From Microbotryum violaceum (lineage: Eukaryota), in contig CDLV01000007.1 in NCBI GenBank assembly GCA_001244265.2, positions 496,001 through 560,000 on the forward strand: a DNA stretch of 64,000 nucleotides, given 5' to 3'. The translations under genes and the position numbers were made by a program. Of the stretch, positions 42,801-57,300 are shown one piece after another; position 1 is the first letter of the stretch; every line of letters begins with the position of its first letter. The notes beneath the pieces are model-generated. The model ran no database searches. It had not been told where the DNA came from and saw nothing but the letters and a program-made list of their open reading frames with translations.

Positions 42801-45489
42801 GACAAGGACGTGCTTCGCATCCAAACTCCTCACGATGACGACGTCGTCGAGTACGTCCTGCTGAACGTGCTCGAGTTCACCTCGTCGCGCAAGCGTATGT
42901 CGGTCGTCGTTCGCCGCGTATCTGGGGGGCACGCCGGTCAGCTGTACCTCTTGTCCAAGGGAGCGGACAACGTCATCTTTGAGCGACTGGCGCCTGGTAG
43001 TGAGCAGCTCAAAATGGCGACCGACAAGCAACTCGAAGAGTTTGCCAACGAGGGCCTGCGCACGCTGTGCCTCGGCTACAAGGAGCTCGACGAGGACCAG
43101 TACGAGGCATGGGAGCGCGAATTCCACGAAGCGACGACGCTCATTGACGGCCGAGAGGATGCGATCGAAGCCGCATCAGAAAAAATTGAGACTAACCTCG
43201 TGCTCCTCGGCGCGACGGCGATTGAGGATCGACTGCAAGACGGTGTGCCCGAAGCCATCGCCGACCTCAAGCGAGCGGGCCTCAAGATCTGGGTCGCGAC
43301 TGGCGACAAGGTCGAGACGGCGATCGCGATCGGTAAGACGTGCAACTTGCTCTCGCGCGATATGAACGTCATCATCGTTCGAGGTGGCGAGTACAATATG
43401 CCGTCTTCGGCCTACAGTCAAATCCGCAACGCGCTCGAGAAGTTCTTTGACGTCGGCGACCTCGCCGACCGGGTCTACCCGCAGCCCCCTGATGCGGTTG
43501 AGAACCCGCCACGAGCCAGCGATCTTCCCGGCGGCCTCAAACGCATCAACACGCGCCAATCGGGGCTCACCGATATCGTGGGTGACGACAACGGGCAAAG
43601 GCCAGGAGGCTACGGTCTCGTCATCGATGGTGCCACGCTCCGACACGCCTTTGCAGAGCCTTACACGAAGCAGCTCATGCTCGAACTCGCGACCCGATGC
43701 CGCGCTGTCATTTGCTGCCGTACGTCTCCTCTGCAAAAAGCCCTGATCGTCCGCCTCGTGAAGGACGGGTTGGGAGCGATGTGCCTCGCAATTGGTGACG
43801 GTGCCAACGACGTCTCGATGATCCAGGCGGCAGACATTGGAGTCGGGGTCGCGGGTGAAGAAGGACTGCAAGCTGTCAACTCGTCCGACTATGCGATTGG
43901 CCAATTCCGCTACCTGCAGCGACTGCTCCTCGTCCACGGCCACTGGTCCTACATGCGCAACGCGAATATGATTGTCAACTTTTTCTACAAGGAAATCATC
44001 GGTATCGGAATCTTGTTTTGGTTCCAGTTCTATTGCGGCTACTCAGCAACGACCGTCTACGAATACACCTACTTGCTCTTCTGGAACGTCTTCTGGACGC
44101 TTTGTAAGTTTTTCGACTTCATCGTTCTCGCTATTCCTGCTTCTTCTGTCTGGACTCAACGCTGACCTCGCGATCTCACAGTCCCGGTGATTGCAATTGG
44201 GGTCTTCGACCGAAGTGTCAGTGACCGAGTACTCATGCAGGTGCCCGAGCTGTACGTCTATGGCCGCAAGGGTGCGTTGTTCGGCCTCAAGCGTTTCACC
44301 TTCTATATGCTCGATGGCATCTACCAGGTCAGTCTTACCTAACCACACCCCCAGCTTGTCTGCTAACCCACGCACGATTTTGCCCACAGTCCGCGGTCAT
44401 CTACTTCTTTCTGGCCTACGCGTATGACACGACAACGGCTCGCCGTGATGGGTACGACATCCAGATGTACGAGTTCTCGACCGTGATGGCGATCAGTGCC
44501 GTCATCGCCGCCAATTTGTACAACGGTCTCAACACGAAAGCCTGGACGTGGTGGGTCGCTTTTGGCGTCTTTCTCGGGCCGGTCCTCATCTTGCTCTACA
44601 CCGCCGTCTATTCGGCGTTCTCTCCGTCCTTTATTTGGAGCTACGTCTACGGCAACAACCAGTTCCTCTGGCCATCCGTCTACTACTGGCTGGGTTTGCT
44701 GTTTACCATCGTGCTCTCGCTCTTGCCCCGCTACTTGTACCGCTACTATAAGGAGAATTACTACCCGACCGACGTCGATATCCTTCAGTGGACCGATGTA
44801 CAAGAACCGAAGCAGTGAGTGCGGGGCTCATCTGAACTAGTGTGATGCATGGTCGACTGATTGCGCGGCTTGCCTCGTCCTCCTTCAGTGACTGGGTTAA
44901 TGACCCTTACATGCCGCAACGTCGCGGTGCCTCTGGGCCGGCTACAACGAGTGCCCACGACATCTACCAGCACGACAATGGCTCCGCTCACGCTGATGAC
45001 ACGCATCCCATCTTCGCTCCTGGGCGACCCAGCCTCAACGAAGAGCCTAACTCTTTCCCGCTGGGGCATCGTCTCAGCCGACAGAGCACGACGCATGACA
45101 TGTCGACGGGTCTGGTTTCGTCGGGTCAAGGCCGTGGTTTCAACTACGACGAGCAACCGCCGGCTCCGTTGTCAATTGCTCGATATACCTCGCGAACAAG
45201 CGATCATTCGTCGATACGAACGCGTCCGAGAAAGGGCAGTCTTCGTCTTGCCGGTGTCGAGCTCAACCCGTTCGCGCGGTCACCGAGTAGGACGAGGACC
45301 GGATCGGTCTTGAACCCCTCGAGGCTGTTTAGCGGAAGACGATCAGCCATTCCGGAAGGAAACGAGGTAACGACGCCGACACGGTCTTCCATCGCGCGGT
45401 CACCGCGACCGGGGCAGGGAGGAGAGTCGACCGCCGACTACCCCATGACCGGGGAAGGCACAATTGGGGGTGGATCACCGTCTACGTGA
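39817..45489 (+). CDS. P4-ATPase phospholipid flippase (Dnf1/Dnf2-like)
   Basis: [54 protein letters not shown]. Confidence 0.96.
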
Positions 45490-48259
45490 GAACGAGTTCA
45501 AAAGCTTGTCGCTCTACGCTAGTCCTTGTTTTGGTGTCGCTTGTACGACTAATATTTTATCAGCTTTCACTAGACGATATCATGCGTCCATCATTTCTGT
45601 TTGATCCTTTTCTGTTGCTCGTTTTCGCCGCTGTTTCGTTTGCTTTGTTCGGTTTCTGTTTCAGTTCCCTATAAAGACTCTAGATACCTGGATCTTCGGC
45701 TTCCTGGCTCCTGGCCTCCCACTCTGTCTCCTCACTCCGTAGCTTTGACGATTACACATGTTGCATTCGTTTCACTTGTTCGCATAACTCCTGCGAGAGA
45801 AAGGACCAGGTAATGATGGATATAAGATAGGTAGGTAGGTACCTACTAGTATGCGAGATATTCGAGGCTTGCTCGCCAGGAACGAAGACGTCGAGAAGGG
45901 ACCTCTGTCAATCGGTGTGGAACGCACCTGCAAGACAGTCAATCGGTGTTGGACGCATCTGCGAGACAGATCAGGCACAGCTCAACAAGAAGCGTGCGCC
46001 GTCACGTGCGCGACCAAGATTTGGCTGCGGATGCACACAACATCGTCGAGTCTGGAGACTCGAGAGGCGAGAGTCGAGTTCAACGTCAATCGGAAATGTT
46101 TACGATTTATTTATTTAGTAAGGGAATGCTTTACGTTCATGTATTATAGCTACGACTTGCTTTTAGCCGAGCCGTCAAGAGTGACGGATTGTGTGTTAGG
46201 CATATCAGAGGCGCATACCTTACATGGGCAAACTTGAGCTTGACTTGAACCGCCCAGCGACGTGGATCCGGAGTCTGACCTCTGATCACTATTTCCTGAG
46301 CAACAGCATCTTGCCGTGCGACCCACTCGGCACCTCGAAACTTGATTAAGTAGGGGGAGGAGTTTCAAAAGCATTGCACTTGGTTCGCCGGAGGCCGGGG
46401 ACCTTCGGAGTCCGCGGAGCAATTGCAGTGGCTTGGCTCGACTCTGACGTGGCCGCGCCACGCGCGTAGGCGTTGAATGAGAAGTCGCCACAGCATGGCA
46501 GAGTGGGCACACGGGCGTAGGACTCGACCAGCTCGACCCTCTCCGAAGGCCTAATTGATGGCTCACGTGATTATAACTCTCAGCGGAGCTCGACAACCCA
46601 CCTTAAGGTAGGTTGTAGGCGCCTACCACTTCGTGGCCTTGGAAAAATATACAATCTTATGGAAATCCGCCCGAGCTCAAGGGACCTACTTCATCCACTT
46701 ACAAAGCACTGCATCGCTTTGCCGTATCTCTGTGGCCCGCCGCGTCGAGAGAACTCCCCCAGAGACTTGCCATTCGAGTCGGCTCCGACGCTCTTCCGCT
46801 CGGATCTTGCTGTACAGCCGCCGCGGAACACCGACGGGCAAATGGGCAATTTGAATCCGTTGAACCCGATGCCGATTCTGGACCTTGTAGCAGCTCACCG
46901 ATCCGATAAAATCGTCGAGGCTCCTCCATCGCTTCACCTCTATAAAGTAAAGCACCCGACCAAGTAAAGTTGCGGGTTGTGCGAGAGGTAGGTAGAAATA
47001 ACAGCCACCTACTACCCTACGGAACTCTGCGAATGATAGCTGGGCCCAGATCGCTGTCACGAACCACTGTGGCTCGCTGTAGACGCCACTTGGTGGGTGT
47101 TGCACTCTGAGTGAACTTGGCACTGAAAATGCTCCCTGCAAACTGTTGGTGAAGCTAGCGCTCCCATTGCCTCCAAACAGAGGGCTCACGGCGGGCTGGC
47201 CGATGCCCTGTCTGTTTGGGACCCCTATTCGGCCGGTGAGACACCTAGCTCCGCTGCCCAAAACGTACGTGTATAACACAATTTGCTCAGAGTGGGTGTG
47301 TGATGACCGGGGCCGCCAGACAATAATACAGGCTGAGCACCGGTCGCGTCCAGCCGGATCTGCAGTGGCAAATATCATATTTTACTCTGTCGTATGAGGA
47401 TCGACCTACCGTTCCTCCTTGAACCTATTGCAATAAGCGAAGAAAAAAAAACGGACCTCCCGGCGGGAAGGGATGCCTGCTGCTGCGAGGTACGTGCAGG
47501 GCCCGGCCGGGTACAAGGGCTTTCTCCATGGGTATGTGTCCCATATCGAAACGCATCATTCATATCCTCGTTTTGAGTGCTCCATAAGAAAATTACGCCG
47601 TGGGCCATGGGTGCCCACTAAATCTAGGGGCTAAGCGTCACCATGTCACCACGCAGCGGCTGAAGCTGCGCAGTCCCCGAGAACTTCGCGTCGACTATCA
47701 TCACGATGTTTGCGGCTAGATTTGGTTACCGGTACAGTCAATGCAAAAACTTGATATGCTATAATGGAACCACTCAGTCTGAAGCCAGCAGTCTGTTCGA
47801 TTCTCACCTTCTGTGCAACCACCTTTATCGCTTGACCATTGCTCGGAGGCGATGGAAAGTTGCCTGGAGTTCATTGCAAGTGTAGGTGAAATATTCACGA
47901 GACAGAAACACTGTAGTATATCCTGCTCAATTCGTCGTTGGCTTCAACACCGGAAGGCATGATGTGGGGTGGGAATTATGACGCCGAGCGGTCTGCAGGT
48001 GCCAGTACTAACCGGACCGCCACACTGAGCGGGTCCTACCAGCCACGGGCGTCGTCCTCCTGCCGAGGCGGCTTGCTTACCCGGCCAGTGCGCTGATAGT
48101 AGGGTGTCCCGTCATCCACTCCCCGCTGCCTTTAACTCGAGTGACCCCAACAGGTCTGCTTGCTGCCTTCGATAGTAGAAGATGGTATCAGGCACCTTCA
48201 CCGGTCGCCAGCCATTGGTCCAACGAGTGCGAATGCAGTGACAATTCCACCTGAAGGTA

Positions 48260-51200
48260 TCAAGGGGTGCTCACCGGTCCGATGTCTAAGCTACGACCAT
48301 TTTTGATCTTGAGCGCGTGCAGTGCCGGAAGCAAGACCTGGGTCGGTAAGAACTTGAACTTCCCCTTCACCAGGTCGCCGAGCGTGTGCTGGCGGCGGAG
48401 TTGCACGCGCTCAATCGGAACGATCATCTTGTCGAGGTGTTCTTCAACGACTTGGATTGCGTCGAAGATCACCCCGCGTGCGGATGCGTAGATCGTGTCG
48501 AACGTCGCGGCATCCGGGACGATCTTGTGCGCGGCCCTGTACGAGGCACGGAGAGCGGCCTCGAGCCTGGGGTCTGCAGTGGCCGGGTGGGTCGCCCTGT
48601 CGCGTAGCAGAGGAACCAAGAGAATCGCCTCGACAATGCGCTTGAGTCTCTGGTTCCGAAAACTTGCTTCAGCCACCTTGAGCTCGTAGACTTGGTGGCG
48701 ACCCCCGGCGGTGGAGGTCACAAAGCCGGCCGAGGCGAACACGCGAAGGACCGCAGGTACCCGATTCTTCCACCCAAAGAGCCCGACGATCAGCATAACC
48801 ACACCGCCCTCTCACCAATCCTCCGAGTGAACGAGCTTCGGCAGGAAGACCCTGTGCCTCTTCGTCTCGATTGTTGCTCGTATGACGCTTGTCCAGGCCT
48901 GCGATGTGAGACAGGGGGGGAGGCGTGCGCAGTGCAGGGCACGCGTCAGGTCCACACGTCCACGTTCAACGGCAACGAGACCACGTCACGCATACTCACA
49001 TACGAAAAGCAAATGACGTCCTTACCACCCGAGACGCGACGAAAGAGGGCTTGCTCTTCTTCGTATGCGTCCGACCCGACAGACGCTTCATCGGGGAGCG
49101 TGAGAGGGTCGTCCAGCCGGGTGCGACCGTTCCCGCCCGTTCCGGCCCCTCCGTCCTCGCGCAGCAGGTAAAGCATGGACATGAACAACGCGCGCCAGCG
49201 GTTTTGGTTCAAGCCAAGCTCCTTCCACTGCGCGCGCGTCAAGAACCCGAGGCATCGACCGAGCGCATCGGCGACGACGCTCTCGATCTGACGGTGGGAG
49301 ATCGCCAGGAGGCGAAGGAATGGTTCCAGAGCCTGTAGGGCAGGCCTGGGACGTTCGGGGGTGTCAGAAGGGTGGGGAGGCATAGTGTCTGACTTTTTTT
49401 GTGTCGAGAGCACTTGTAGGCGAATGTTGATGGTCAGGAACCGACAGATGGGTGCGCGATTGGGTCCGTGTGCCCACCCCGCCCCAGCGCTGGCGCACCA
49501 TCTCCTGTCCGAAATTGATTTCGGACGCACACCTATGCGAGACGACAATCGCATCCACGCGCGAGTGGAAAAGACCTAAGATCTTGGCCCACGATCATGT
49601 CCATTCACGCAAGGTGCACTTGTGTAGTAGATCATTCCAGAGTATCGAACACTACGAGAGATCATGGCATGATCTCAATCACTACGAGGTATCATCGGAC
49701 CAGATCAACTCTTGAGCCATTTTGAGGGTCAAGCCGATCAAACTCGTGAAGGAGGTGAACCCCCGGAACCGCCGGCCGAAACGGGTCCGTTTCTCATTCT
49801 CTAGGCGCCCAGGGGTGATCTCGTAGAATACCTATCTCTGAGTGTAGTTTGCCCACCGTACGACCTGTATTCATGGAGTTTATTCATGTGAAGCTAACAA
49901 GTTCTACAATTCTGATCCAGAACGACACCTGGGAAACATCAGGAGGCTACCTTAAAGTGCGAGTGGCGACTCCTACCTACGAAAGAAGGCCGTCGATCCG
50001 AGTCGACGGCGCAAGAAAACCCCGAGAGCTGCGACGATGCATCGACCTTCTTTGTCTTTATACGGCTTTACCTATCAATCTCCATTGCTGCAATGCTGTA
50101 GCTGCGCGAATCGGATTCGTCGACAACCAAAGCCGCATCCGAGTCCACGTCCATCAGCTCGAGCGAGCTTGCTCGGTTCCGAGTTGCCGCCGGTGGTGCG
50201 CTTGCCTCAGCCTGACGTGCCGTCCTTGCCGGGGGTCTTCTAACCCGATGTGCGCCTTGCCTCAATCCTCCGGGCACCATGGGTTCTCGGACCAGATCGT
50301 CGAGCGTACCCGTCATTGTTGACATCCTGTAGATAACTCCGCCAGGAGATTTTCCGCCGCCGCCGCCGCTGCTGCCCGAGTCCGATTGCTTCGAGAACAG
50401 GGCACGTCCTTCGGCCGCCGTGGTCGCCTTGTTCCTTTCGATCGACTTTGAATTATTGGACTTGCGGGTCGAGACCATGCGGGCCGGCTGCTCGGCCTGA
50501 CGTCGTCGAGCCTTGGCGTGGTCACGTCGGAGTTCAGGATCTTGAACGGTCGAGAGACTCGAAAGAGAGGGCAGAGGTCCGGTGGAGGAGACCCCGGGTT
50601 GGTGGACGAGAGGGGGGTTGCGGCGAATCGGCGCATAGGCATATCGTGAGACTTTCGACGGGTCTTCATGTGGCGTTCCCTCGAATCGCACCCTGTACCC
50701 TTGCGAGACAGCGGTGATCGATGCCGTTGTCGCTTTTGCGAACCTCTCGTCCTTGTAGCGGTGCAGCAGATCTTGGATAGGATCGATCTCGTCGCAAAGG
50801 GACTTGACCTCCTTAATTCGTTTCTCCGTCGGCGCCGGCTCCGAGTCGACGTTCCTGATCAACGCCCGGAATCGCTGACGAGACTTCCACACCGCGGGGT
50901 GAGCGTCGCACCGCAAGGTCCACCAAGCTAATGTTTCGGTCCTTGCCCGATAGCACGGCACGACAACGGGCTTGGTCGACGCCGAGAAGCATGAAAAAGT
51001 CGCTGTCTGCGCTCACGAGGCCGACGCGGTTTGGTTCGAGCGCTACGTCGCAGATCTGGCCACACTTGGTCGACGCCGACGAGGGGATCGGCCTCGTGGG
51101 CCGCGACGACGAGCAAGCCTTGCTCGGACCAGCGAACAAAGGTGGCGACTCGGGTTGGCTCGTCACCGTGGCGAAAAGCGACCTTCCATTCTTTGCTCGA

Positions 51201-51755
51201 TTGTCCGTGAACGCACGCGGCGAGGGTGTCGTTCGTGATGAAGGGGATGGGGTGGGTGACAGGGGTCGATTTATCGGAAGGCTTTTGCAGTTTCTGGCGA
51301 TCTTGGCGATCGAGCACGGTGTCCTGCTTGAGCTTGGGCCGAAGGATGGGATGATCAAATACCACGACCACTTGGATCCGCCTTGCTGTCGCTGCAATGA
51401 TCTCCTCGAGGTGTCGAATGATCGCATTGAGGAACAGCCGGCCTCGCTTCGGCTCGTTGTGTTTTGCCCGGTCCGTCGCGGCTTTGCGCTGACGTGCGAA
51501 CGCGGTAGCGCCGTCGATGATGACGACTAAGTGTAGCACATTGATGGACAGCGTAGAGGTTCAGCTAGCGTCTGCTTGGTATATTGTCCCGGAGCAATTA
51601 CGGGCTGTGAAGGGGCTCTGAGGAAGCGACTTGCCATCAATTTTGCCGACGAGGGAAACCAGCGCGCTGCTCAGGTTGGTCTCCCGAGAGAGAACGGCGT
51701 CTGGAACGACCTCCAAAGCGTTACCGACGCAGTCGTGGCCGTGTTTGACCGTCAT
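48260..51755 (-). pseudogene. Decayed multi-exon gene with N-terminal FEN1/XPG-type PIN nuclease domain; candidate mobile-element gene
   Basis: MTVK start, intron 51527-51601, motifs VIIDG, VVVVFD, AHEAD and VSADSD. Frame changes near 51065 and 50910. A further spliced coding block lies at 48260-49332; whether it belongs to the same gene is inferred. Confidence 0.65.
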
Positions 51756-51793
51756 CGAGGTAGGTATGAACGGTGTAAGTGATGTAAGTGTGA

Positions 51794-51836
51794 GGCGCAA
51801 GGCGCAAGGTGCAGGGTGCAGGGTGCAGGGTGCAGG
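51794..51836. repeat. 7-bp tandem repeat (GGTGCAG/GGCGCAA) just upstream of the PIN gene
   Basis: Six consecutive units are visible. Confidence 0.8.
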
Positions 51837-54360
51837 AAGAATCAAGATGTTCGAAACGTCGCGCTGCCCGCTAGCTCGCTCCGAGCCGAAAAGCAAACGA
51901 GGGCAGGTCAAACAAAAGGTCGTTCGATCTCAGAGTAGTGCGAGAAGACATCATAATATCCTAGATTGTACCGTAGAATATCCTGTACCCCATATTCGTT
52001 ATTTTTGCTCTCAATCTTAGTCTGGTCAAGGCGGCGGCCTCCTTTCGGAATATCGCAGTGGGGAGCTTGAGCGTCCACGATCTCGGCAACGAGAATCCGC
52101 CAATTTTCTAATGAACAATAGCTCGACGTACATGTAAAAAAAACTAAACTTCTTTCAATATGATTTTGTATTTGCGTGCCACCCTACTTGCACGACAGCC
52201 TCGACTCGCTGCGTCGGAGCTCTCGCGTGAAGCCGACCCCGCAACTCAGCTCCGCGACGGACTCAGAGTTCGGGGTCGTCCCAACTCGGACTAAGCTACT
52301 GGAGCGACAACCGCTGTATCGATCGCGGCGATTTTCAAGTCTGGGGTGATCCTTGGAGCTCAACCTACTTGCTGATAGGAGACCGAGCTTGATCGACAAG
52401 GTATTCGGTCTTTCCGAGGAGTGGATCGTTGGCCTCGATGTCGGGTGCACGGTCCCCTTTCCGTTCAGATCTTCGGCGCTCTCGGCCGCTCTCGGCCGAG
52501 GTGGAGAAGATCGAAAGCTTAAAGTCACAGCGTGGCGTCATGTCGATGAGATGTCTCATTCTGCCAAGCGCACGCCCCGCACCCAAGTCAGCAACCACCT
52601 CGAGCTCGTCGCTTCTCTCTTTCTCCTTCCCTCTCCTCGTCGACGCGCTCTGCACTTCTCGCACCACTTAATCTTGCCGACATCGCCCCCCTTTTCAGGA
52701 GGATACGAAACGGTGGCCTTTGTGGTGTGGTAGAGTCTGTCGTTCGATCCCTCCCACCAAACATGAGTAACCTGGTTACCTAGCTGTGATCGTGTTCGTG
52801 TGGCGTAGGGTCGGACTGACTCGTCTCGTGTTTACCCGTCTCGCGTCCATCTTTCACCACCCCACCTCCATCACCTTACCCCGCACCACCTCTCCCCTCT
52901 ACCCTCTCACTGCGATCTCTCGATTCCCGTTTCTCACGGCGTCACGGCTTGCCATCAGCCTATCCACTCGTCGACGAGTGTTGAATGGCGCCTACGGCAT
53001 GTCACTAAGGTTGTGCCTGGTTTACAAGACCGCTTGCATTTGATCGTACCCTGTGAGTCTTTGCTTCGACCCTTGATCGATCGATGGATCGATCGTGCTC
53101 GCCGGCCCTTGACGACGGGCGAGGCGGGGCTGACGATTCGATCCTCGCCTACACTCTCTAGACAGCAGCCTCCACTGCGTTCCCGAATCGACCGATCTCA
53201 CCTGCTCGGATCGAAGGAGGTTCATGGTACCCCTAACATCAGTGAGTAGCATGTACCCTAATCCTATGGTACAAGGTAGCTTACTTCCGGTGTACGCGTC
53301 AACCTCCAGCTGCACACGGTCTTCAAGCCATCTCCACTTCGGTCGACAAGGTCCCCTTTTCTTTTTCTGTTGCTTTCGAATTGGTTTCGCCTCGGAACTC
53401 TATGTTGGCGGTGCTAAGTGGCAGGCGACTTGTCCTTGTTTAGCCTAGCCGATCCAACTCCTACATTGAGCCTCCCTCGTGAACCCTTTTCGTGTTTTGT
53501 AGTTTTTGAGTGCACGTATCGAGATGCGCATGCACCACGGATTTGAAATTCGATCAGTGCGTGGCGCGGCCTGTGTGTACTCAGGCCGCGTGTAGAATAT
53601 AGAGCTCGTTCTTCATATTTTTATTAAAATGCTTACAAACACCTTCCCGAGTCCAAGGCAGCATACGACATCCCAGATTTCTTTAAATCGACGTGACTAC
53701 TACGGGGCAAACTAGAAGAAAAGATTGAGACTCCAAAAAGCCGAAAGGACCCACCACGTGCAGCTCGGAGTCGCGAGCGTCAACGCGAGTTGCACGGCAG
53801 CGCACGGCCGGGCCCGACGTAACCCCCCACGCTTCAACGCTTCAGCCCGGCGCCTTTCTTGTGGGAATTCGCAGCAGGACTCGCTCTGTCCTGGTTTACC
53901 TTTGTTGTTGTCACCCACAGGCTCGAAGATTGCAGTGCATTTTATTTGGTTCCAAAGTCGCTGTAGTTATCGCTTGCATTGTTACCTTTGTCTTGTCGAG
54001 GTATCTCTTCTCATACTCAACCGCAACTCCCTTGGTGACGGATCGACGATCTACACCCGAAAACCCGATAGGTGCCTCTAGGACCTAGTGCGAGCCTCAG
54101 CAGCTCAGCCGGCTCAGCCAGAGAGCTTTCTCGTGTCCCGACTCTCGACTCGATCTGAGGTCTCCTTCCCCTTTACGGCACCTCTCGGCTTTCCTTCCAG
54201 GCCTCCTACATCCCGCACCGGCCGTTTGATTTTTCCTACTACACGCACCGTGTCGCCACCGCCTTCTCTTTCGCATGCCCTTCACTTTGCTGCCCTAGAC
54301 CGCCGCTATACACCTTGGACCGCCACCGCCGCCGCCGCCTCCCAGCTAGTCGCCGCGGCA

Positions 54361-57300
54361 ATGGCGATGGCCCTGCTCAGCTCGTCCCCGGCTGCACACG
54401 ACTTTGCCTCCCGACGAAAACCACCCCGAATACACAGTTCTTTGCTCGCCATACCTAGTTCACCGACTGCTGCCTACCATAATGGCGAACTGTCGCCCAC
54501 GCTGGACTCGTCTTTCGCAAGCTCCATGTTCGTTCACTTTCCTCCCTCGAGGCTGCAGCCCAGCCGCCGCCCGCCTCCTCTCCGGGTGACCACCTTAATC
54601 GCTCTCGCTTGGCCACGTTAGCTGACTAGATCCGCTACGTTTTTGTTCATTCTTGCCTTTGCATCCGCTGCTACACAGGTCCTTGTCGAGCGACGCGCCG
54701 CTGCCAGCTGGCGCCTCGTTCTGCTCGGCCACGACCGAGCCCGCGACCGCGACCACGACCACGACCGCGCCTCCGCCCGCGGTTGAACGATTCTCAGCCG
54801 ACGGGTCCCCTGACGGGTTACGCGCGCGCGCGCCTTCCTCATCTGGGTCAGGCCGGGCGGCGTCAAACTTGTCGGGACGTCATAATGCCTTCGCGCCGCC
54901 GATCACTTCCAAGCCCAGTCATGTGTTAGCGCCGACAGCGACTTCTTCGCTCGAGTTGGCTCCGTTCGCACAAAAGCCCATCCCAGCCAACAATGCCGAT
55001 GACGTCGATCGACGCGCCTTCGCCGCCCTCGCCCCCTCCCTCGGTCAATCAACATGTCCTGTAACTTCATCGACACTGGATCGGATCGGCCGCGAAAATT
55101 CGGGAGCCACAACAACGACATCAACAACAAAGGGACTTACTGGGAATTCGTCTCCGAGCCCAGCGGCCGCCCTTTCTTCGCCTTTCCTCGGTAACGTCTC
55201 GGCGATGGATGTTTCCCCCGCCGGCGCCGCGATCCATTCCCGAATGCGTTCGTCGGTCGCGTCCACCTTCGGCGGTCGCGCGGGTCTCGCGCTCAATCGC
55301 ACCGAATCGGGATGCTCTACAGCATCATCGGTATCGTTCGCGTCGTCGTCGTCGTCATCGAGCACTTCATCATCCTCGACCACGACCAAGACCAGCGAAG
55401 GCGCGTTCGGAAGCTCGGTCGCGGCCCACAGCGAGTTCCCTTTCCTGAAAAACTTGCTGTTTCGCCAGCCGCGACCGTCCATCTCGACCGCTTCTTCGGT
55501 GTCGTCCACAGCTTCTTGCGCCGATGATAGCAACGCTTCATATGCAGCAGAGATGATCCCATCAAACAAGCCACGGTCCAGAGAACAAGCCCTCGAAGCC
55601 TCGCCCGCGCTCACCTCGACGGCCCCCCTCTCGATTCGGCCCCGGATGACTTCCGGACAAAGTCCGCCCCGCCCTCTGATCAAGCACTATGCCACTGTAC
55701 CACCTTCCAATGCCGATCGCTTATTGCCGCCTTTCCAGCAATTTCACATCAACGAGTCCTCCGCTCCTGACGGGCAGACCTATGGCGGCAGCACCGACAC
55801 CGACGAGGACGAAACGGAGGAACAGGGACCCATGGCCCCGCCGCCGATGTTGACCGGGAACCGACGTCGCCACGGATTGCCTTCGGAATGGAGTTCGGGG
55901 AGCCTTCGACGTGCTTCAACGGATGGTAGCCTCAAGCCGCCGCCCCATCCTTCGCCTGTCAAGCGAGCTTCGCATCCGAACCTGGGATCGCGACGTATCT
56001 ATGATGTCAACTCGTCCCCTTCCCACATGGATGTCGACGGCAGCTCACCTGCGACATCACCGGTAGCAATGCTACGACATCGCAATCATCCACGCTCAGT
56101 GTCCGACTCGGCCGGCCGTAGGCCCCCCTTGCCGGAATGCGACGGCCAATCACCGCTGCGACCCGACATTGAGGTCATCTCTTCGGACTCGGGCGCGTCG
56201 TCGCGACTAGGTGACATCTTCGCCGATGACCTGTCGCCCATTCCACCCTCACGCAAACGATTCCTCAGTGACGAGCGCGATTTTTTGGGGGACCCGGCCT
56301 CTCCTTCGCCCGCATTGTGCGCGCCGACCAGCTTGTTCGGGCTCGCGCCGGCGAGGCGACCGATCTTTGAGAAGGCCGTGTCGACGTCAACGCTGCCTGC
56401 GAACATCGTGCGACGCCAGCGTTCCTCCGCGACTCTTGGACTAAGGAAGCGTCCTTCTCTCTCGTCGTTTGCTACCATGGGCCCTTCGGTCCCTGCAGGC
56501 CCGGCGTCGGCGTCGCTGGAAGCTCTCAGTCCATTCGCCACCGCGGCCGCTGGGTTTAAACGCCATGCCGTCACCTCAATCACGGGGAAACCAAAGCCGA
56601 TGCGAAGAGCATTCTCGGTTGCGGACGCGGCGGTTCAGCTTGTCAGGCGGGAACACAACGCCCTCGACACCTCCAATCGCGCCAGCATCGCGACCGAGAC
56701 CCGCGCCTTCTCAGACATTGGTCGGCACGCAGATCCCACCGGTGCAGATCTCTGCAGTGCGATAGCCTCTTCGACCAAGCCTTTGAAAACATTGCAAGAT
56801 ACGGGCTCGCCTGTAACTGGCTTCCGCAGTCAAGAAGCGAAAGGCAAGGTCCTGCCGTGCTTCGGCGTCAAGCAGGACGGGCTGATGCGCATTACCGCGA
56901 GCACGCTCAATGACCTGCAATCGGGTCTCTTTGCGTCTCGCATCAAGCGCTACCACATTATCGACTGCCGCTTCGACTACGAGTTCGATGGTGGCCACAT
57001 CCGCGACGCTGTCAACATTCCCGAGCTCGCTGAAGTCGAGGAGAGCCTACTGCACAACTCGCCGCCCAAACCGAGTACGAGCGAGCAAGCTCCGGGGGAT
57101 GGCAAGACCGTCCTCATTTTTCATTGCGAGTTCAGTGCGAAGCGAGCGCCTACGACGTGAGTTGTTTAGCTTGGCTTAGCCCTCCGGACTGGTTCTGACC
57201 GCTGCACCGTTTCTGCCTCCCATAGTGCTCAACATCTGCGCAAGCAGGATCGACTGAAGAACCACCACGACTACCCCAACATCCACTACCCGGAGGTGTA

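Follow-up and report, generated by a model that had tools for sequence, protein, structure and literature searches.

We analyzed a degenerate insertion in a 64,000-nucleotide (nt) stretch of the Microbotryum violaceum genome (the window, positions 496001-560000 of G000:C5; its genome was searched as 33 Mb in 20 contigs, and below, G000:Cn or Cn is contig n of that genome, Lnnn an extracted locus, Pnnnn a protein and Xn a sequencing run). This dead copy lies on the minus strand at 53553-48230 and corresponds to the leftmost 5.3 kb of an element with dispersed copies. Judged by its sequence and that of its relatives, it is very probably a decayed, right-truncated DNA mobile element encoding a FEN1/EXO1-type 5' flap nuclease (open reading frame 1, ORF1) and a large Fanzor1-type RuvC nuclease (ORF2). 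We propose that this pair of nucleases would serve the spread or retention of the element by the mode set out below, and we give this account as a whole a probability of roughly 0.55. An earlier note on the same DNA had suspected a dead copy of a mobile or selfish family, and our searches bear out a multicopy mobile family: of 26 candidates scored for the PIN piece at the protein level, 24 matched, spread over 8 contigs, and the element DNA gave at least 64 matches (40 of 139 candidates scored) with one end in common. The nearest named proteins come from Microbotryum spp., at 57-90% identity.

The end that the copies have in common is the left one. Across 28 such ends, 16 from subfamily A and 12 from subfamily B, the first four bases were T in 27, C in 28, G in 28 and A in 26; subfamily B, whose proteins are 32% identical to those of A, has the same start. 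The base preceding TCGA was A in 7 copies, C in 9, T in 8 and G in 4, and the flanks were unrelated. Left out of this set were a duplicate flank (C4:570k), degenerate ends (L052, L061, L062, L064, L083, L085 and L090) and pattern matches without arm homology (L178, L181, L182, L185, L186 and L188). Just inside the end lies a hairpin-like palindrome with a weak predicted fold (-6.1 kcal/mol for 80 nt), the GATACGTGCAC core of which is common with subfamily B. No protein match was found for the left arm (51756-53553), and summed contig depth at 53350-53683 was about ten times that of the flank in three DNA runs. The other side is ragged: copies extend about 90 to 5,300 nt from the fixed end, their stops are scattered, and internal deletions or an inverted piece are frequent. 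A search of window positions 45400-54400 for inverted and direct repeats gave no terminal inverted repeat or target-site duplication (TSD), and no transposase of the Mariner, MuDR, Sola, IS4, Helitron or Crypton type was found in any copy examined.

ORF1 is, by structural modelling, a nuclease of the FEN1/EXO1 fold, with its activity predicted. The window copy is the spliced, frameshifted gene with ordered acidic motifs that the earlier note had described: it has a 75-nt GT..AG intron (51601-51527), two frameshifts of 2 nt each (near 51078 and 50908), and the motifs IIDG, VVFD, AHEAD and SADSD in this order. Block by block, it is 79, 91 and 69% identical to P0002, an intact protein of 610 aa with acidic positions D56, D109, E196, D198, D226, D228 and D281. 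All seven of these FEN-type positions, which we take to be equivalent to the metal ligands of FEN1, are conserved in subfamilies A and B. The GxDY motif had been reported as missing, which is true of the window copy but not of the family. An in-frame deletion near 50865 takes out GCDY..GIKGIGP in the window copy, a segment that the C3 and C12 copies retain; the loss of the helix-three-turn-helix (H3TH) is thus specific to the window copy, which has a second deletion of 29 codons near 50465.

The P0002 model has a mean predicted local distance difference test (pLDDT) score of 47, mostly 60-90 over residues 1-110 and 150-260. When it was searched with Foldseek, the top 14 listed rows were EXO1 (E 2.5e-5 to 5e-4), followed by Rad2, FEN1, XPG, GEN1 and XRN, in agreement with the FEN1/XPG-type PIN fold claimed before. 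A wider structural search was weaker, with EXO1, XRN1, FEN1 and XPG at Z 5.5-6.5 and one unrelated match higher, at 7.3. ESM Atlas gave Pox_G5/XPG at 0.94 for ORF1, a best family common to only 3 of the 10 best matches, and the H3TH segment aligned weakly to Rad2 (E 0.27). Neither Pfam XPG nor TnpB matched the window or the locus pieces at E up to 1. Compared with the FEN1, EXO1, XPG and GEN1 nucleases, including poxvirus G5 (PMC5499597), ORF1 has in common the PIN core fold, the seven acidic positions and the H3TH, but it differs in its 12-17% identity to solved structures, in having no Pfam XPG match and in being multicopy within a mobile element. A third PIN subfamily (GNDY, about 28% to P0002) occurs at L057 3884-5510 and L058 4909-6657 in two copies that are 97% identical, with no Fanzor match beside them.

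The motifs of intact ORF2 identify it as a Fanzor-type RuvC nuclease, for which guided cutting is predicted. The window copy contains a 101-nt intron (48999-48899) and a premature TGA (48814-48812) and is cut off after residue 323, so that WED and RuvC are gone. Earlier, a basic linker and a helical stretch had been read as one gene; the helical stretch is real, but it belongs to a separate ORF2 beyond a stop and 684 nt. The guess that intact copies end in a Fanzor-like RuvC domain proved sound, as full-length relatives, which measure about 1,000 aa and show 81% identity in the part they have in common with the window copy, have RuvC I-II-III and a zinc finger. The M. saponariae protein P0063 (1,027 aa) reads GIDPG, then VDE six residues before CxxxxC, then CxxxC and HRD..AAKN. 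A RuvC-II glutamate six residues ahead of the zinc finger (here VDEDLTSSLC or VDEYNTSSVC) is given as a Fanzor/TnpB criterion in the portion consulted of PMC13565253. The Bao-Jurka motif, D-X(125,275)-[TS][TS]XX-C4 finger-X(5,50)-RD, is complete in 5 of 18 ORF2 proteins (P0063-66 and P0055, spacing 237-241), namely in 4 of the 7 in the window's subfamily cluster plus P0064. Among incomplete subfamily-A annotations, two are without RuvC-I and one is without II and III; most subfamily-B ORF2 proteins are annotated as split ahead of the last exon.

Profile and sequence searches gave a mixed picture. P0055 matched PF07282 at 27.2 bits, above the curated cut-off of 26.3; of seven subfamily-A proteins, six fell below it at 16-22 bits and one had no match. 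ESM Atlas assigned an ORF2-type protein to Cas12f1-like TNB/DUF8286 at 0.97, the NCBIfam guided_TnpB match was weak (E 0.14-0.45), and PDB sequence searches with P0055, A5 and A3 returned nothing significant. Broken subfamily-B copies of the window's genome (C8:1306.7-1310.4k and C5:1422-1425k) show RuvC-I, RuvC-II and the finger, with RuvC-III complete in the C8 copy and partly deleted in the C5 copy. In subfamily A, none of the copies found in this genome retains RuvC-I; the sequence GGDRGK of the C3 copy was considered as a candidate and rejected, as that copy breaks before RuvC-I is reached. Searches for ORF2 relatives gave 29 pattern stretches in viral contigs and 94 in metagenome contigs, none of them confirmed. 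ORF2 resembles Fanzor1 in the RuvC D/E/D order, the glutamate six residues before the C4 finger, the RD motif, DPG/DLG, SDG in subfamily B and a dispersed DNA element as carrier. It differs from known Fanzor1 in its length of about 1,000 aa, several introns, a FEN1-type partner and a GC-containing terminal motif, and the Mariner, MuDR, Sola and other transposases of known Fanzor1 carriers were not seen in the Microbotryum element. At L158 3733-3930 (G000:C12:650.7k), the C-terminus of a Fanzor-type protein survives on its own, with RN in place of the RD of RuvC-III.

We compared these proteins with published Fanzor tables. Yoon Table S2 (about 2,500 Fanzor hidden Markov model hits) includes the Microbotryum proteins SCZ90857, SCZ88586, SCZ87578 and SGY32675, of which the first three are M. 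saponariae ORF2 proteins. A search of Saito 2023 supplementary file 3 for one PIN motif returned 15 rows: 12 FZ1, 1 FZ2 and 2 unrelated bacterial ones. All 12 FZ1 rows, labelled hypothetical protein or putative transposase, carry EAD and DSD motifs within the first 400 residues; their hosts are Mortierellaceae (10), Amoeboaphelidium (1) and Tilletiopsis (1). Like ORF1 plus ORF2, these proteins have N-terminal EAD, DSD and xDY, a basic linker and an FZ1-branch protein, and one row has a GTL..V(K/R) linker motif resembling the end of ORF1. They are, however, single chains of 783-1,401 aa as opposed to two genes, with homology to ORF1 judged by eye from motifs. The presence of PIN fused to FZ1 in 12 rows indicates that the pairing is old and widespread. 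A profile search with the PIN alignment against 1.84 billion representatives gave 27 matches (longest 576 aa), and since those looked up were all Microbotryum, the Mortierellaceae fusions lie beyond its reach.

No Microbotryum protein was present in the searched Saito or Jiang supplementary files (one scanned Saito file fell outside the search). The portions consulted of Bao & Jurka 2013 (PMC3627910) hold no basidiomycete in the species table and no flap nuclease, and those of Jiang 2023, Yoon 2023 (PMC10711439), Saito 2023 (PMC10432273) and a 2026 review mention neither XPG nor flap, nor any PIN of relevance. Likewise, the parts consulted of the PIN classification (Matelska 2017) name no transposon-borne FEN family, and no such element appears in those of Matelska 2017, Perlin 2015 and Duhamel 2023. 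The searched literature, which excludes Repbase and subscription journals, gave no account of a Fanzor with a FEN1, XPG or PIN partner, nor of a Fanzor in Microbotryum or Basidiomycota. The earlier description of the element as undescribed therefore does not extend to the Fanzor, which is already catalogued, but it holds for the PIN partner and the element anatomy, which are not discussed in the searched literature; Repbase entries may exist.

Under the account that we favor, the Fanzor would bind a guide RNA from the right end of the element and cut DNA beside a short motif, predicted to be TCGA. The element would then be copied into the break left end first, and copying would often abort or switch template, leaving copies that have a single fixed end, have lost internal sequence and contain inverted segments. 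The flap nuclease would trim displaced 5' flaps and so make the junction sealable. There is precedent for a target-adjacent motif (TAM) that matches an element start, in the portion consulted of PMC10530073.

Several observations weigh against this account. The cutting, copying and flap-trimming steps are ones that we infer. No right end, TSD or guide RNA was found for any copy examined, and the sequence 3' of the subfamily-B Fanzor stop showed no unusual folding (z -1.0 to +0.9). The loci examined offered no usable empty site, so TCGA can be assigned neither to the target nor to the element; 7 of the 28 ends came from a pattern requiring TCGA-like bases and are thus partly circular; and reported Fanzor1 TAMs are AT-rich (PMC13565253, portion consulted). 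The ORF2 AlphaFold model has a pLDDT of 29 and its Foldseek rows were noise. The WED motif, SDG in subfamily B, reads TNG/PNG in A where Fanzor1 has TDG. The subfamily-B copy on C8 joins the left arm almost directly to the Fanzor without a PIN gene. Finally, the adjacency of ORF1 and ORF2 in M. saponariae was read from locus-tag numbers and not from DNA.

Fanzors are usually regarded as helpers that ride on elements whose transposase is known. In the element described here, a flap nuclease is the constant companion and no transposase was found; if the pair does move or maintain the element, it would constitute a new eukaryotic route of RNA-guided DNA insertion. Many of the large fungal Fanzor1 proteins that published tables contain begin with 300 aa lacking annotation, and a PIN nuclease would also account for these. 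We suggest, tentatively, a widespread fungal element class without a conventional transposase, in which Fanzor1 would open the target and the FEN1-type flap nuclease would complete a one-ended copying insertion. Equally tentative is the distribution of this nuclease within such a class, fused in Mortierellaceae, aphelids and Tilletiopsis and split in Microbotryum. M. saponariae has several gene pairs on different chromosomes that are 91-97% identical, and together with the TAM prediction TCGA these make the question testable.

The fixed end, sub-terminal hairpin and ragged other end could also belong to a non-autonomous Helitron-type element moved in trans by RepHel, with the Fanzor acting in restorative homing and the PIN nuclease as an accessory or passenger, a reading that we regard as unlikely. 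These features recall the Fanzor-bearing Helitron2 elements CRe-1,2,3 of Chlamydomonas, which, in the portion consulted of PMC3627910, likewise have one conserved end, truncation from the other and internal deletions. The element begins with TC, and the window's genome holds 154 RepHel matches. However, the conserved CRe end is 3', with insertion after TTTT and variable TSDs (same source), whereas the conserved Microbotryum end is upstream of the genes and its flanks are unbiased. Helitron1 is defined by a 5' TC inserted after A and by a 3' hairpin plus CTRR; the insertion after A is not seen either, as A precedes TC in only 7 of 28 copies, and there is no T-run target. Visible Helitron ends (covering few of the 154 matches) are unlike the TCGA end, none of 22 copies has RepHel joined in sense to the left arm, and one Helitron within the left arm is a separate insertion. 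The link between PIN and Fanzor across distant fungi also argues against a chance passenger. At L048 6900-9460 (G000:C12), a 2.6-kb Helitron nested in a left arm is bounded on one side by telomere-like TTAGGGTA units and on the opposite side by a hairpin with CTGG.

Within the two-nuclease account, ORF1 and ORF2 of the window's subfamily are probably two adjacent genes, as annotated, with no fusion. Subfamilies A and B, as well as M. intermedium, retain the coding tail and stop of ORF1, and the ORF2 ATG stands at a matching place in A and B, which makes a split likely. An ORF1 gene has the consecutive locus tag in all 5 M. saponariae members of the P0063 cluster (Chr10-2g03008/9, Chr1-3g02320/1, Chr3-1g05485/6, Chr4-3g07262/3 and Chr5-2g07994/5); the consecutive ORF1 neighbour of the M. 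silenes-dioicae member is a 136-aa fragment, and six further ORF1 proteins have no listed ORF2 partner. Pairing is less clear in subfamily B, because its sole placeable full-length PIN protein lies three tags after the last piece of a Fanzor and the C8 copy has no PIN.

It is improbable, although compatible with our account, that the two-gene annotation is an error and that ORF1 and ORF2 are spliced into one PIN-Fanzor fusion. Fused forms exist elsewhere, as in the FZ1 rows above, and AG sites with CTGAC occur just ahead of the ORF2 ATG, a context absent from the C3 copy. The conserved ORF1 stop and ORF2 ATG speak against a fusion, as does a search of 474-2000-aa proteins, which gave PIN proteins of 512-640 aa only. 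A frame does run from the linker into ORF2-like helices in the diverged copies C12:694k and C15:427k. At C12:693-695k (L190 461-2229) and in L191, a long linker of basic and acidic character leads in frame into a distant homologue of ORF2. In the C12:694k copy, the ORF2-like helices score z 3.9 (0/500 shuffles) and the next exon E 1e-3; the linker motif gave no score against ORF1 (z up to 0.7, hhalign probability 0.2%). At C15:425-428k (L085 2285-5114), the PIN subfamily is a diverged one whose left arm resembles that of B; PIN motifs lie upstream of a junction related to the one at C12:694k, and one frame runs from a basic linker into a helical stretch. No piece of ORF1 or ORF2 scored against this junction segment (z up to 1.4). 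These copies hint at fused PIN-Fanzor forms in the window's genome too, with no complete one seen. The PIN fusion of the earlier note is thus probably wrong for the window's subfamily, right for distant relatives and perhaps right for diverged subfamilies in this genome.

Less likely again is a cut-and-paste element with long, diverged inverted arms, for which TCGA would be a duplicated palindromic target and movement would depend on a DDE transposase not encoded by these copies. Fanzor1 is known in Mariner, MuDR and Sola elements (PMC3627910, portion consulted). TCGA is palindromic, and sequence located some 500 nt past the stop codon of the subfamily-B Fanzor is approximately 70% like a segment of older arm-like repeats, inverted relative to the left arm. 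Yet no right end with TCGA, TSD or transposase was found, and the copies mostly keep one end, where cut-and-paste copies normally retain both. The post-Fanzor resemblance to the arm-like repeat is seen at L113 6690-6990, L161, L160, L083 and L172.

The damage in the window copy is real. Public contigs from other runs span its lesions and junctions with 0-7 differences (X1, 50381-51107 and 48199-48476; X10, 49587-50994), which argues against assembly errors. Such contigs come from three runs with three organism labels (one run may be the window's own source), so the insertion is common to them. Run X16, only guessed to be RNA, gave no splice joint. The window copy is dead and makes neither enzyme. 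A normal host gene for DNA repair, present once and corrupted in assembly, the counter-explanation that the earlier note had named and that a FEN1-family fold might suggest, is refuted by the many dispersed copies with a common end, the recurrence of the lesions in independent contigs and the lack of any Pfam match to XPG up to E 1, and the mobile-family reading stands.

Features of the element copy and its break point in the window
Feature	Position	Strand	Basis or remark
Conserved left terminus TCGA, element start or candidate TAM	53550..53553	-	28 independent copies
Hairpin-like palindrome, 18 nt inside the left terminus	53510..53535	.	seen in sequence
Left arm, 1.8 kb, most repeated part of the family	51756..53553	-	copy matches
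ORF1, predicted PIN nuclease with basic tail (intact form 610 aa), a pseudogene in this copy	50068..51755	-	69-91% identity to P0002; fold match
Deletion junction, 43 codons missing relative to P0002, including GCDY-H3TH	50856..50869	-	segment kept in C3 and C12 copies
Spacer, ORF1 stop to ORF2 ATG, 684 nt	49384..50067	-	about 70% conserved among diverged copies
ORF2 residues 1-323 of about 1,000 aa, N-terminal helical part	48275..49383	-	81% to P0063, both blocks, E 5e-152
Start of next ORF2 intron (GTGAG at 48274) and break point	48230..48274	-	X1 and X10 contigs cross the junction
Separate low-copy repeat adjoining the break	46751..48230	.	matches on C14 and C15

The element sits between a P4-ATPase gene (PF16212, E 5e-35) and a rhodanese/CDC25-type ORF (PF00581, E 4e-7), as the earlier note had placed it between flippase and CDC25-type genes. 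Its measurements needed correction: the intergenic gap is about 9 kb and not about 6.5 kb, the element continues 1.8 kb past the flagged limit of 51755 to 53553, and 48260, taken for the gene end, is a stop within an intron just before the break. The repeat at 46751-48230 matches G000:C14:310811-312311 at 92% and a piece of C15 at 86%, and those two have other flanking sequence in common; a piece of the same repeat also adjoins the point where the diverged PIN copy on C15 breaks off. An 80-nt piece of a high-copy repeat (at least 37 matches) lies at 46144-46227, and short tandem duplications occur at 45907-45968 (31 nt) and 49629-49688 (30 nt). Elsewhere in the window, at 1987-2225, is an element of about 240 nt resembling a miniature inverted-repeat transposable element, with inverted ends of about 45 nt; it is also found at C5:1426.3k, at C5:2383.7k and, directly after a Fanzor-type C-terminus, at C12:651.1k.

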